This document shows positions 2,243 to 5,337 of a DNA stretch of 13,373 nt, piece by piece. Source of the DNA: Candidatus Thorarchaeota archaeon. Its GTDB lineage: Archaea; Asgardarchaeota; Thorarchaeia; Thorarchaeales; Thorarchaeaceae. The stretch's first letter is position 1. The number at the start of each line of letters is the position of its first letter. A program made the translations under genes and the position numbers. The stretch covers positions 1 to 13,373 of the forward strand of contig JBHIAE010000070.1 of assembly GCA_046758445.1 (NCBI GenBank), read 5' to 3'. Under the pieces are notes generated by a model. The model did no database searches. It was not told where the DNA came from and worked only from the letters and a program-made list of their open reading frames with translations.

Positions 2243-2629
2243 TGTCAGTATCTCCATTTGGGCAGAGGTATATTCCAATATCTAGTTTGTTCAGGCGAAG
2301 TCGGTGTTGCTGGTCAACTTCCACTTCTCCAATAGAACTTGAAACCTTACTAGAAATCTGACCTCATCTGTAATGATGTGGTGAATCAAATCTCTCGCCA
2401 TAAGCTGTTAATACAAGTCTTCAGGAGCATCGTCATGGTGATCATCAGTTAGCGTGACTAATGTGTTCGAATACTACTTGCTCTCCCGAATAGGTCGATG
2501 AATCCAATGAGAACAATCTTGGAATACTGTGAGCATATTAGACGACTGTTTGATGTTCCTTTCGGGCTCTAGCTATACAAAAGAGGAGTTACAAAGTAAT
2601 AACACGTCTATTTGATTAAATTGTTTAAT

Positions 2630-2643
2630 GAATTTAAATATCG
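2630..2643 (+). promoter_or_regulatory. TATA-containing 14-bp motif, copy 1 (GAATTTAAATATCG)
   Basis: Exact duplicate at 2725-2738. Contains the archaeal TATA-like TTTAAATA about 20 nt upstream of the hairpin starting at 2661. Overlaps the palindrome AATATCGATATT (2637-2648). Confidence 0.6.
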
Positions 2644-2660
2644 ATATTCTCACAATTGTA

Positions 2661-2724
2661 TGAGTTCAAAACCTCTCTTCTGGACAAGAAGGGGAGTGAA
2701 CTCAACTGACCTGAAATGGGTCAG
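2661..2724 (+). ncRNA. Putative small structured RNA or left-end element upstream of tnpB (two hairpins)
   Basis: Hairpin 1: TGAGTTCA (2661-2668) / TGAACTCA (2697-2704), with inner stem TCTCTTCT/AGAAGGGG using G-U pairs. Hairpin 2: CTGACC (2706-2711) / GGTCAG (2719-2724). Lies between the two TATA-motif copies. Confidence 0.45.
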
Positions 2725-2738
2725 GAATTTAAATATCG
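2725..2738 (+). promoter_or_regulatory. TATA-containing 14-bp motif, copy 2; candidate tnpB promoter
   Basis: Exact repeat of 2630-2643, just upstream of the ATG at 2752. The spacing is slightly short for a leaderless start. Confidence 0.5.
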
Positions 2739-2751
2739 TAGGCGGGAAGCG

Positions 2752-4419
2752 ATGACTAGGTCGAAGGGTGTCACAATCTCTGTCAAAGTCCCAATTAACT
2801 GGGATGCACTAACTAGGAAGAAACAGCAGCGCCTCAGACAGATTTTGGGCCGGGACATGAGAGTGATTCGTGCCTTCTTAGGTGTTATTGAACAGCATGA
2901 AGACGAGTTGCTCACTGGTCGCAATAAACAACGAATTCATGATGGAAAGCTCGACAGACTCACCCTGACTGCAGTCAAAGTCAAAGCCGGATTCAGTCAG
3001 AGACTGATTGTGCCCCATGACTTTAAGGCCCGTTTTCCAAGGATTTCTAGAAACGAGCTCTCAGAGTGCAGGCAGACTGCAGTCGCACTCTACGAGAGCT
3101 ATGTCGCTCTTAGAGAGAAGAAAACTCGAAAGACCTCACGTCCTTGTGAGGTCAACTCTACCCGGAGGATTCCTAGATGGACATTCTCTGTAAGATTCAA
3201 GCTTCTCAATCACAAGACCAAAGTGGCAAACCTGTGGCTGGATCTCCGTGACTCTCTGGACTCAGTACGAAAGGGAAAGAAGTATCATGACAGACTGCTG
3301 TTTCCTCTCAAGGTATCCCCATTTCATCATGATCAATTCATTCGTGGTCCAGTGAAAGCTGCACAGGTGTTCACAGACAGAGATGGTAAGTGGTGGGCTA
3401 CGTTTGCTGTCCGTGTCGAAACTCCAGAATCACCGAATGGCAATCTACCGTTTGCGGTTCTTGGAATTGACCTTGGAATCGACAAAGCAGCCTGTTCAAC
3501 ATTAGTAACGCCTGAGAAGGTCAGAGAAACCAAGTACTTCAGACGGACGAGGAAACTGGAACTCATTCGGAAGCTAGACCAACAAGTTGCTCATCTCCAA
3601 AGGGAAACGAACAAACGACGTAACAGTGGTTTCCCCCATGACAAGCTGGCTCTGAAACTAAGAAAGATCAGAGGCAAACGAGAGAGGGTGGCTAAGGAAT
3701 ATGATCGGCTTTTGGTGAAACAGATGCGTGAATACATCCTCAGACTCTCTCAGGAATATGTACTCTATGTTGCAGTTGGCAGACTTGCAAACATTCGCCA
3801 ATTGGCACGAAAGGGCAACCATCAGGGTCGACGTTTCCGTGGCATGATTCATTCTTGGTCATTTGCCAGAATCACCAAAAGTCTGAAACATCAGCTGGCA
3901 CAACTTGGTTGGTCAGTCACTGGAAAGGACTCTAGGTTCAGAGTTGTTCCCGAGAACTGGACCTCCATAATGTGCTGGAAGTGCGGCCAAAAGGGGATGC
4001 GTCCAAAGCAGAATCTGTTTGTGTGCCCTACCTGTGGCAACAAATGCAATGCCGACATGAATGGAGCCATCAACATCGCTGGACGCCTTATCACGCTCAC
4101 AGACTCACTTCATTCTGTGAGAGGACTAGGTAAGTGGACTAGTGCGATTGCACGAAGTAAACGACCGAAGACCCAAGGGAAGAAATCTCAAGGGAAGTCC
4201 TTACTCTCCAAGGCAAGTGTTGTATCGCACTTGGGAGAGTCCGCGGCTGTTCATTCAGCTCAGATGAGCCTTCCTGACTTTGGCGACAGAGTCGGGATGG
4301 ATGATAATGACCCCGCCGTGGCAAGTTCTGTGGAAAGTTTCACTGTCGCTGGACGTGATATGCCAGCAAGTAGACAGGAGAAGGAAGCCAGGTCTTCAGG
4401 AGGAATCTCATCCCGATGA
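2752..4419 (+). CDS. tnpB: TnpB/Cas12f-like RNA-guided endonuclease (IS200/IS605-IS607 OrfB family) with rearranged RuvC-II and long C-terminal tail
   Basis: RuvC-I VLGIDLG (D at 3469). RuvC-II region YVAVGRL has G at the canonical E position (3778), with an alternative E in PENWTS (3952). Zn finger CWKC...CPTC and RuvC-III NADMNGAINI (D at 4054). Start placed at ATG 2752 because ATG 2716 lies inside the upstream hairpin; the start is uncertain. Confidence 0.88.
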   Translation: MTRSKGVTISVKVPINWDALTRKKQQRLRQILGRDMRVIRAFLGVIEQHEDELLTGRNKQRIHDGKLDRLTLTAVKVKAGFSQRLIVPHDFKARFPRISRNELSECRQTAVALYESYVALREKKTRKTSRPCEVNSTRRIPRWTFSVRFKLLNHKTKVANLWLDLRDSLDSVRKGKKYHDRLLFPLKVSPFHHDQFIRGPVKAAQVFTDRDGKWWATFAVRVETPESPNGNLPFAVLGIDLGIDKAACSTLVTPEKVRETKYFRRTRKLELIRKLDQQVAHLQRETNKRRNSGFPHDKLALKLRKIRGKRERVAKEYDRLLVKQMREYILRLSQEYVLYVAVGRLANIRQLARKGNHQGRRFRGMIHSWSFARITKSLKHQLAQLGWSVTGKDSRFRVVPENWTSIMCWKCGQKGMRPKQNLFVCPTCGNKCNADMNGAINIAGRLITLTDSLHSVRGLGKWTSAIARSKRPKTQGKKSQGKSLLSKASVVSHLGESAAVHSAQMSLPDFGDRVGMDDNDPAVASSVESFTVAGRDMPASRQEKEARSSGGISSR

Positions 4420-4545
4420 TTGTAGACAAAGTCCTTGCTAATCTCAGATTTCTAAGAAATCTGGGACGTGGCGACACCGGCAGGGAACGGGTGGAACACA
4501 GGAGTTTCTCGAAGTTGAGATTCACTCAATTCATGAAACAGGTCA
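4400..4545 (+). ncRNA. Predicted omega-RNA (reRNA) scaffold 3' part plus guide; the 5' boundary may extend into the tnpB tail
   Basis: Position at the tnpB 3' end is typical of omega-RNAs. Long-range stem GAG-GAATCTCA (4400-4410) / TGAGATTC-A-CTC (4516-4527). 11-bp hairpin TCTCAGATTTC-TAA-GAAATCTGGGA (4442-4466). IS200/605-like end tetramers TCAC/TCAA at 4522-4529. Confidence 0.55.
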
Positions 4546-4546
4546 G

Positions 4547-4592
4547 AAAAACATTGTGACAGGCATACTGGGTCCTCTTGAGCAATGTTTTT
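4547..4592. repeat. Perfect 10-bp inverted repeat (terminator- or operator-like)
   Basis: AAAAACATTG (4547-4556) / CAATGTTTTT (4583-4592) with a 26-nt spacer. The right arm ends in a T-tract and overlaps a TATA-like TTTTTATT upstream of rps3ae. Confidence 0.55.
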
Positions 4593-4692
4593 ATTCGACT
4601 CGTTGAATGTCGGCGCGGTTCGACGGCCCAGTCCGTCAGCCTTCGTGATTCTTTGGATTCACTCTTAGTTACACCATGAGCGTGATAGTCAG

Positions 4693-5337
4693 ATGTCCTC
4701 AAGAAGCAGACAGGCAGCGGCAAGGACCAGGGACAAGTGGCGCGAGAAGACTTGGTATCAGGTGCTCGCACCAAACTACTTCGATAACAAGGAGATAGGT
4801 TCTACGCCCGCTGGTAGTCCAGATATGCTGATAGGTCGTACAGTACAGCCTACACTCTATGACCTCACTGGGGACTTCGACCAGATTCACGTCAAGATTC
4901 GCTTTAGGATACTCGAAGTCAGTGGTCAGCAGGCACAGACTGTTTTTCATGGCCACGAGTGGAGCTCAGACTACCTTAGAGGTCTTGTAAGAAGAGGCAC
5001 GGCTAGAATCGACTGGATTGGTCCTATTCTGACGAAAGATGACTTCCTTATGCGCATCTCCGTCATTGTCTTCACAACAACCCGAACAAAGACCAGTCAG
5101 GAACACGCTGTACGAAAGACGATTGAGCGAATCATCAGGGCTCATGCAAAGAAACACGTCTTCGATGAACTAGTTCAGAAAGTGCTTCTGGGTGACCTAG
5201 CTTCAGAGGTTCATGAAGAAGTCAAGAAGATCATCCCGGTTCGAGAGTGCGAGATTCGAAAGAGCAAGGTTCTCAAAGGCCCAGAGGAAGTAAAGGCACG
5301 AAGAACAAGACTTCGGAGAGGCACGAAGAAGGAATAG
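4693..5337 (+). CDS. rps3ae: 30S ribosomal protein S3Ae (eS1)
   Basis: Signature 'RDKWREKTWYQVLAP...GRTVQPTLYDLTGD...DYLRGLVRRG...IIPVRECEIRKSKVL'. Confidence 0.97.
   Translation: MSSRSRQAAARTRDKWREKTWYQVLAPNYFDNKEIGSTPAGSPDMLIGRTVQPTLYDLTGDFDQIHVKIRFRILEVSGQQAQTVFHGHEWSSDYLRGLVRRGTARIDWIGPILTKDDFLMRISVIVFTTTRTKTSQEHAVRKTIERIIRAHAKKHVFDELVQKVLLGDLASEVHEEVKKIIPVRECEIRKSKVLKGPEEVKARRTRLRRGTKKE

Follow-up and report, generated by a model that had tools for sequence, protein, structure and literature searches.

The window analysed here, a 13,373-nucleotide (nt) stretch of DNA, comes from a Thorarchaeota (Asgard) genome bin of 3.25 Mb that is 92.7% complete. At about positions 2624-4546 it carries a TnpB element that is known from Thorarchaeota and belongs to the Asgard 'GTTCACTCA' type, in a copy without the giant gene, here called gene X, that accompanies tnpB at most loci of the family. 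Two motifs, left (L) and right (R), lie on either side of tnpB and are complementary to each other. This complementarity is a trait of the family and is not due to chance. The explanation that we favour, and to which we give about an even chance, is that the leader upstream of tnpB is a CRISPR RNA (crRNA)-like mini-guide, which would dock on a scaffold resembling a trans-activating crRNA (tracrRNA) and aim TnpB at the element's own promoter. The nuclease would then probably switch itself off by means of an additional guide piece, separate from the first.

Complementarity across tnpB and its co-variation

An earlier note on this DNA had described 14 base pairs with one bulge between positions 2694-2707 and 4513-4527, and direct reading confirmed them. 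The left stretch reads GAGTGAACTCAACT and the right one AGTTGAGATTCACTC, with GAGTGAATCTCAACT as its reverse complement. Between them they make 14 pairs, the right copy having a single bulged A; RNAduplex puts this duplex at -20.2 kcal/mol. Further out, GAAAT (2713-2717) pairs with GTTTC (4504-4508), which brings the paired stretch to ~24 nt. An ungapped repeat search missed the pair because of the bulge. A bulge-helix-bulge splicing motif was ruled out, as the duplex has a single bulge. The two motifs and the features of the right end are the following.

2692-2717, plus strand: L motif in its extended form, GGGAGTGAACTCAACTGACCTGAAAT, pairing with 4504-4527
4513-4527, plus strand: R motif, consisting of the inner-stem 5' arm and most of the conserved loop of the terminal hairpin
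4237-4546, plus strand: omega-RNA scaffold region, with an approximate 5' limit, overlapping the 3' end of the tnpB open reading frame (ORF)
4504-4539, plus strand: terminal hairpin of the scaffold, with GTTTC (4504-4508) and GAAAC (4535-4539) as outer stem
4513-4519 and 4525-4531, plus strand: inner stem of the terminal hairpin, AGTTGAG and CTCAATT
4521-4528, plus strand: conserved loop TTCACTCA, kept in nearly all loci and preceded by a variable arm
4535-4546, plus strand: A2, GAAACAGGTCAG, the 3' terminus of the scaffold and the right end of the family homology
4547-4566, plus strand: canonical omega-RNA guide position in the flank, AAAAACATTGTGACAG, unique in the genome

About 75 loci were analysed in total, and the co-variation set comprised 57 distinct Thorarchaeota loci whose TnpB proteins are 44-100% identical. 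An L-R duplex was found in every locus examined, with energies from -15.7 to -30.8 kcal/mol. Over the 57 loci the mean duplex energy was -23.1 kcal/mol for cognate pairs, -19.3 for non-cognate R motifs and -8.5 +/- 2.9 for shuffled R motifs, and the cognate mean was reached by 0/10,000 permutations. Co-variation between the upstream and downstream motifs, which the earlier note had proposed as a check, is therefore present. The same held when the invariant core was removed (cognate -8.7 vs non-cognate -6.4, 0/10,000 permutations) and in a second coreless test (-10.8 vs -8.2, 0/5000). These values come from folding each duplex locus by locus and permuting cognate and non-cognate partners. This procedure replaced alignment-based folding, because the variable stems become scrambled when they are aligned by sequence only; given MAFFT alignments of either the leader or the right end, RNAalifold predicted hardly any structure.

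At least 10 distinct two-sided changes were seen between L and R. In L019, CTCAACTG/CAGTTGAG is replaced by CTCACCTG/CAGGTGA, and a partial AGGT is retained in L036 and L042. Other two-sided changes are CTCATCTG/CAGAATG (L045), CGAC/GTCG (L003, L004 and L032), CTCCAC/GTGGAG (L075 and L070) and CTCTAA/TTAGAG (L071). The core is otherwise invariant, with the two-sided exceptions GAGTGAG/CTCACTC (L030) and GAATGAA/TTCATTC (L073). Whole arms have been swapped with complementarity kept in the clade of 46-49% TnpB identity (CTCGAAAGAG/CTCTTACAG) and in that of 44-46% (TTTCCTC/GAGGAAG, ACCCTCT/AGAGGGT and CTCCCCC/GGGAG). Among the aligned non-Watson-Crick oppositions on the plus strand, 38 are of the G.U type and 14 of the A.C type. 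This excess of G.U favours pairing of plus-strand RNA, or of plus-strand single-stranded DNA (ssDNA), over a protein reading duplex repeats.

Two alternative partners co-evolve with the right 5' arm, namely the upstream module and the local 3' arm (-8.6 vs -6.1 for the latter, 0/5000 permutations). The earlier note had offered competition with a local stem as one option, and this part stood; the partner that it named, 4400-4410, did not. That stretch pairs on paper in the window and is not kept in other copies, as judged by inspection of a paralogue alignment; the local partner that is conserved lies at 4525-4539. Taken alone, the right terminal hairpin does not exceed its shuffles in stability (z -0.2), and cofolding gave a minimum free energy (MFE) dimer with at least 10 intermolecular pairs in 36/49 loci (mean ddG -5.6). 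The R variable region was also considered as a DNA guide against the leader DNA and rejected: its would-be seed is mismatched (TTCTTAC vs TTCGGTC), and it does not lie at an RNA 3' end.

The placing of the downstream copy near the end of an omega-RNA scaffold, also proposed earlier, held up as well: R ends 19 nt before position 4546, where the homology of ~60 loci and copies stops at A2. The flanks differ beyond this point, and no shared conserved motif was found in them. Four omega-RNA-only remnants without tnpB exist in the genome, on contigs C40 (L006), C3 (L007), C10 (L009) and C72 (L010). They keep the window sequence from 4117, 4237, 4391 and 4468, respectively, to ~4546.

The leader module, the coupled boxes and a proposed mechanism

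The upstream copy had been placed in a two-hairpin element behind a TATA-like motif, and this was borne out. The leader unit consists of hairpins 1 and 2 (MFE -28.8), with a TTTAAATA box at 2633-2640 ahead of it. The L motif covers the 3' arm of hairpin 1 and runs into the start of hairpin 2. The features of this region are given below.

2624-2629, plus strand: TTTAAT, the window form of the conserved CTTMAT directly 5' of B1, in the position of a target-adjacent motif (TAM)
2630-2643, plus strand: box B1, GAATTTAAATATCG, a promoter box (T1) resembling a TFIIB recognition element and TATA box (BRE/TATA-like); proposed DNA target of the mini-guide
2661-2704, plus strand: hairpin 1 of the MFE fold, with outer stem TGAGTTCA/TGAACTCA and a variable inner stem
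2706-2724, plus strand: hairpin 2 (CTGACCT/GGGTCAG), whose 3' half, 2713-2724, is A1, GAAATGGGTCAG
2725-2738, plus strand: box B2, GAATTTAAATATCG, a guide-like copy of B1 that begins exactly after A1
2741-2745, plus strand: Shine-Dalgarno (SD)-like GGCGG (family consensus GG(C/T)GA), 5-7 nt before the start codon

Both hairpins are well supported among 34 loci, with 89% of cells paired in the outer stem of hairpin 1 and 93% in hairpin 2, and the L RNA is more stable than dinucleotide shuffles (mean z -3.6). Hairpin 2 shows a compensatory change in the distal clade, from CTGACC/GGTCAG to CCGACC/GGTCGG, and a wobble form, CTGGCC/GGTCAG. The leader module ends in GAAAYRGGTCAG, as the omega-RNA does, A1 being the same motif as the omega-RNA 3' terminus. 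A1 and A2 co-vary weakly but significantly, the cognate pairs scoring above non-cognate ones in all but 4-8 of 10,000 permutations, and matched variants include GGTCGG/GGTCGG, GGTCTT/GGTCTT and GGTTAG/GGTTAT. The 3' half of the leader copies the 3' strand of the right hairpin in the order arm, GAAAC, AGGTCAG, and the leader also holds GAGTGAA, complementary to the conserved loop TTCACTC.

The layout of the left side is common to all loci: CTTMAT, box B1, ~15 nt, GTAYGAGTTCA, a variable stem, GGAGTGAAC, a variable arm, CTGACC-GAAAYR-GGTCAG, box B2, GG(C/T)GA and ATG. On the right side all loci have GGAACACAGRAGT, a variable arm, TTCACTCA, the 3' arm and GAAAYRGGTYAK, followed by the flank. L modules come one per tnpB copy, as a covariance model found nine single copies in the genome, eight of them adjoining tnpB. 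A lone leader-like module is present at C8:71509-71600 (L152), and its sequence after GGTCAG deviates (AGTTCTATGAACGG).

B2 lies 95 nt downstream of B1, and in the window the two are identical over 14 nt. Identity over 12-14 nt was found in ~62/70 loci, though the box itself differs between loci. Its major-allele frequency is just 0.29-0.55 at positions 3, 8 and 11-14. Across 66 loci, per-position identity of B1 and B2 is 0.92-1.0 at positions 1-12 and then falls to 0.77, 0.53, 0.33 and a background of ~0.23. Its onset is exact on both sides: positions -5 to -1 before B1 read T in 57 loci, T in 66, A in 44 or C in 19, A in 64 and T in 65, and B2 is preceded by GGTCAG in place of CTTMAT. Since B1 and B2 remain identical across this divergence, an old single duplication is insufficient to explain them. 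Promoter function is insufficient too, because it leaves the 3-6 nt behind the TATA box free to vary. A target-site duplication of an inserted hairpin cassette was rejected, as such copies would drift, yet they are identical within loci and different between them. The idea that both boxes match a third site was dropped, since no third copy or complement of the box was found inside the elements.

The simplest reading of the boxes is that B2 is a guide on an RNA started at T1 and B1 its target, with a TAM-like motif. B2 starts 24-29 nt before the ATG, so that a TATA there would place transcript starts no earlier than the ATG. The SD-like motif occurs in 58/66 loci and lies 5-7 nt before the start codon in ~48/66. 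Together with the B2-ATG spacing, this argues that the translated mRNA is leadered, starting at T1 and carrying the leader.

In the mechanism that we propose, a promoter at B1 (2630-2643) would start a transcript near 2658-2664, the leader of which would fold into the two hairpins and continue into tnpB. This leader, either cut free or within the mRNA, would dock on the downstream scaffold, with GAGTGAA as a toehold for the conserved loop TTCACTC. Docking would oust the scaffold's own 3' strand and place B2 (2725-2738, 12-14 nt) in the guide position. Such a guide would match B1, which has the putative TAM CTTMAT on its 5' side, and the DNA of B2 itself would be spared because GGTCAG, and not CTTMAT, precedes it. 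TnpB, if it binds the composite RNA, may then bind the element's own promoter and repress it, and with a match this short it would probably bind without cutting. The earlier note had suggested, as one option, a split guide with a tracr-like upstream RNA. The family-wide co-varying complementarity and the G.U bias agree with a split guide, but the roles look reversed. The downstream scaffold looks like the tracr-like (anti-repeat) part, and the upstream module looks like the guide-bearing, crRNA-like part, because it ends in GAAAYRGGTCAG as the omega-RNA does and is followed by a 12-14-nt copy of the promoter box. A wider claim is advanced more tentatively: a transposon-type Asgard TnpB that is still nuclease-competent may work with two RNAs, the crRNA-like leader invading the terminal hairpin of the tracr-like scaffold by strand displacement from a toehold in the loop. 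If so, 'RNA splitting' would have arisen here independently and with no CRISPR array, and the own promoter would be bound and not cut.

Several observations count against the mini-guide. The inner stem of hairpin 1 is paired in 57% of cells, with covariation not above shuffles (34 loci, sequence-only alignment), and the size of the A1-A2 effect is small (5.4 vs 5.1 of 7). The copy on contig C4 (L002) has lost the distal L motif, hairpin 2 and B2, while its ORF and R motif are intact. The p value of the G.U bias, ~0.001, is overstated since related loci are not independent. Cofolding of the two RNAs had been proposed earlier as a further check; it gave the intermolecular dimer in most loci, but for the naked RNAs of the window the duplex energy of -20.2 is roughly offset by what it costs to open hairpin 1 and the right hairpin (12.2 + 7.7). 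With energies so near balance, the exchange of leader and scaffold would need protein or co-transcriptional folding. B2 itself also resembles a promoter and may have a dual role, and repression of T1 with an identical B2 left free would be an incomplete brake if B2 fires. Moreover, empty tRNA-Gly sites, when used to infer a TAM, yielded only scattered TTCAT, TTAAT and CTAAT motifs.

The complementarity could also serve as an RNA switch in cis without guide function, in which a single long tnpB transcript pairs its leader with its 3' scaffold across 1.8 kb. Such a switch would govern how the omega-RNA matures, how stable the mRNA is or how TnpB is loaded; it might, for instance, protect the tnpB mRNA from cleavage by TnpB until translation has taken place. 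The identity of B1 and B2 would have another cause. We consider it unlikely. It is compatible with the same co-variation and G.U bias and with the two mutually exclusive, co-evolving partners of the right 5' arm. The near-balanced energies of the window would be expected from it, and the SD-like motif implies a leader and ORF on one RNA. It does not explain the sharp 12-14-nt coupling of B1 and B2 with CTTMAT on one side only, the GAAAYRGGTCAG end that the leader has like the scaffold, or the fact that the leader copies the hairpin's 3' strand in full, GAAAC included, and the pairing reaches neither the SD nor the start codon. An obligatory upstream tracr-like piece, needed by the downstream guide-bearing RNA for cutting a canonical flank-matched target, is very unlikely in our judgement. 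The poor stability of the right hairpin alone, the dimer favoured in cofolding and the one-to-one tie of L modules to tnpB would suit it. Pairing with L, however, displaces the very strand on which the downstream guide sits; this strand, too, co-varies with the arm to which L pairs; the remnants on C10, C72, C40 and C3 persist without an L module, and the guide-like tail formed by A1 and B2 would be left unused.

At the level of DNA, the motifs could be subterminal inverted repeats, joining the ends of the segment during mobilisation either through a bound transposase (e.g. the Cas1-like giant protein) or through pairing in plus-strand ssDNA. The inverted repeat, ~24 nt long, indeed lies near both ends of the segment that can occur without gene X, as it does in the window and on C4 and C15. 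Flanking repeats are reported at aCas1-TnpB loci in the passages of Altae-Tran 2023 (PMC10691335) on these loci, and a G.T wobble bias would also fit plus-strand ssDNA. The motifs, however, sit 64 nt (L) and 19 nt (R) inside the ends of the homology, and since at least 27 of 35 loci have gene X beyond the left motif, they are internal to a two-gene unit. Recognition of duplex DNA by a protein predicts no asymmetry of G.U over A.C, each arm has a local partner on the same strand, and no Y1 transposase was found in the genome. The proposal of terminal inverted repeats in the earlier note is not supported, given the position of the motifs, within the homology and within the X-tnpB unit, and the strand-asymmetric mismatches (38 vs 14); a role of the repeats in DNA is, more generally, rather improbable. 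The absence of a visible target-site duplication was noted earlier, and none was seen here. Chance complementarity, or shared ancestry without selection, has a negligible probability. The GAGTGAA and TTCACTC cores are nearly invariant, so that core pairs alone give no covariation signal, but distal arms have been swapped wholesale between clades and are still complementary, and the permutations (0/10,000 and 0/5000) refute it.

TnpB, gene X and the ends of the element

The ORF between the two motifs encodes a TnpB-family RuvC-like nuclease with a TNB zinc-ribbon domain, as judged from its sequence.

2752-4419, plus strand: tnpB, 555 amino acids (aa); Pfam Cas12f1-like_TNB with E 3.3e-11, and OrfB_IS605 as a weak match below the cut-off

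By phmmer it matched solved TnpB and Cas12f chains with E values from 5.5e-9 to 1e-4. Alignment to solved TnpBs shows that the RuvC-I Asp (GIDLG) and the RuvC-III Asp (NADMN) are kept. The RuvC-II Glu is replaced by Gly in VAVGRLA (window 3760-3790, residue ~340), and a candidate relocated Glu lies in VPENWTS, before the zinc ribbon (window ~3940-3960, residue ~400). This predicted rearrangement of RuvC-II matches one of the 'rearranged' classes in the account of Altae-Tran 2023 (PMC10691335), and a rearranged active site is plausible. The last ~100 codons of tnpB (window 4120-4419) are of low complexity and overlap DNA that is conserved in the remnants lacking an ORF, so that what is conserved in them may be the RNA scaffold and not the protein.

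TnpB relatives are present in 57/87 genomes of the order, often in many copies per genome, with 44-71% protein identity. The host genome holds further copies of ~68% DNA identity on contigs C4, C37, C102, C15 and C85, and more distant ones on C2, C24 and C90. Gene X (1600-1900 aa) is divergent and upstream, ~100 nt from B1 and head-to-head with tnpB, in at least 27 of the 35 loci with 1.5-kb flanks; examples are L138:165-5738 and L139:888-6041, both on the minus strand. It is found almost solely in Thorarchaeota, and each of its paralogues in the host genome pairs with a tnpB copy. No gene X adjoins tnpB in the window, and the copies on C4 and C15 likewise lack it.

No match to gene X was found in Pfam, NCBIfam or the PDB sequences. 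For the model of its residues 1-300 (predicted local distance difference test score, pLDDT, 82.8), Foldseek matches were mostly Cas1 or casposase, with probabilities of 0.6-0.9, E values of 0.05-1 and template modelling (TM) scores of 0.3-0.4. The predicted fold of these 300 aa thus weakly resembles that of Cas1/casposase. Read by eye, the pattern E..NALL.Y..H..D..E appears common to this N-terminus and Cas1, for which hhalign aligned 19 columns with a probability of 2.7%. Residues 400-720 look in the model like a candidate Cas4/RecB-type PD-(D/E)xK nuclease (D485, E507-x-K509), with Z scores of 5-7.3 to Cas4, MGME1, AddA and RecB. A Y1 HUH transposase TnpA (PF01797) had no match in the 92.7%-complete genome, in which positive controls matched, and neither had a Cas1 profile. 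Cas1 matches elsewhere in the order were never on contigs listed with a tnpB copy.

The homology of the family begins at 2593-2621 and ends at 4546. In the empty-site alleles, suggested earlier as a way to define the element ends, relatives join ~2313 to 4583 of the window, but the junctions are not clean. The ~280 nt at 2314-2592 are absent from the relatives' empty-site alleles and from all family loci, and neither an ORF nor homology was found in them. The first 16 nt past the right end (4547-4562), at the start of AAAAACATTGTGACAG, are the exact reverse complement of the host promoter sequence that relatives have just upstream of their S3Ae gene, and window 4583-4592 keeps just CAATGTTTTT of that sequence in direct orientation. 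In another genome, L078 has the same flank start as window 4547-4562 at a different locus.

In one subclade spanning several genera (L066:2205-2280, L036, L069, L072 and L073), the right end meets a convergent tRNA-Gly(TCC) at the latter's 3' end, which the canonical guide would read. The most distant clade (44-48% identity; L104:290-330, L105-L134) invariably lies upstream of one conserved host gene of 136 aa. Its right end is always followed by TGCATGCATCC, which element-free genomes lack too, and several genomes have two tandem right-end remnants at the site.

Related systems and significance

Asgard TnpB loci associated with aCas1 (Cas1H-Asgard-1 and -2) are reported in Altae-Tran 2023 (PNAS, PMC10691335). 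Its passages on them mention a 'hypervariable region' downstream of tnpB, bounded by a conserved T and GTTCACTCA, which was guessed to be a spacer-like guide; this remark is the sole published counterpart that we found. Like those loci, the present element has an Asgard host, a TnpB with a rearranged RuvC-II and, in its right motif (...AGT-variable-GTTCACTCA), the same bounds as the 'hypervariable region'. Most loci of the family also have the giant divergent gene, whose N-terminus is Cas1-like with weak scores. The GTTCACTCA motif and gene X place the family with or next to the aCas1-associated Asgard TnpBs. In contrast to the published reading, the variable stretch here is an arm of two alternative co-varying helices, and those passages mention neither the upstream partner module nor the coupling of B1 with B2 nor the A1/A2 repeat. 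The window copy also differs from the Cas1H-Asgard loci in having no Cas1-like gene.

With the canonical TnpB/omega-RNA systems of IS200/IS605 (ISDra2; PMC8612924, PMC10097598) the element has in common TnpB itself, one long scaffold that overlaps the 3' end of the ORF, a guide from the flank past the right end and a donor copy spared for want of a TAM. Unlike them, it has a host genome in which no Y1 TnpA was found, and a second, upstream guide-like unit that is complementary to the last hairpin of the scaffold and whose guide would match the element's own promoter. Splitting of the omega-RNA into scaffold and guide RNA is held to be the key step from TnpB to Cas12 (Jin 2025, Cell, as presented in PMC13565253). 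As in the type V tracrRNA:crRNA pairs and the TranC 'RNA splitting' intermediates described there, a guide RNA would here dock, as predicted in silico, on a separate scaffold by a repeat/anti-repeat duplex. Unlike in those systems, no CRISPR tandem array is present in the window, which holds a single fixed 'repeat-spacer' unit; the window has no adaptation genes, a Cas1 profile matched nothing in the genome, and the single-RNA form in cis is kept alongside. An Rfam search of 2400-4800 at permissive thresholds matched no family. 'TnpB-to-Cas12 intermediate' is used here as an analogy and not as a statement of ancestry.

Autorepression by a long-form tracrRNA of Cas9 was reportedly described by Workman in 2021 (a study among the references of PMC8730458). 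CRISPR repeat-like regulatory RNAs are a precedent for autorepression by a partial guide (10.1101/2023.03.03.530964). Such natural precedents were counted in favour of the mini-guide. The likeness lies in a short match (11-15 nt in the CRISPR-Cas cases) next to a protospacer-adjacent motif (PAM) or TAM at the own promoter, with binding and no cleavage expected. Those are CRISPR-Cas systems in which it was demonstrated by experiment, whereas the effector here is a transposon-type TnpB known from sequence. Like TldR (PMC10705468), it would be a TnpB-family protein guided to a promoter for repression. In TldRs catalytic residues are lost and a full guide directs the protein to host genes; the window TnpB, in contrast, keeps a plausible rearranged active site and a flank guide, and would target itself.

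If the mini-guide explanation is true, this element would be a present-day case of the RNA-splitting step between TnpB and Cas12, in Asgard archaea and away from any CRISPR locus. No transposon TnpB with a self-repression circuit would have been described before it. A scaffold that can be reprogrammed in trans by an RNA of ~65 nt would follow from it, and a short trans guide for a compact nuclease may be of interest for genome editing. The published Asgard 'hypervariable region' with its GTTCACTCA boundary would be re-read as the arm of a helix and not as a spacer.

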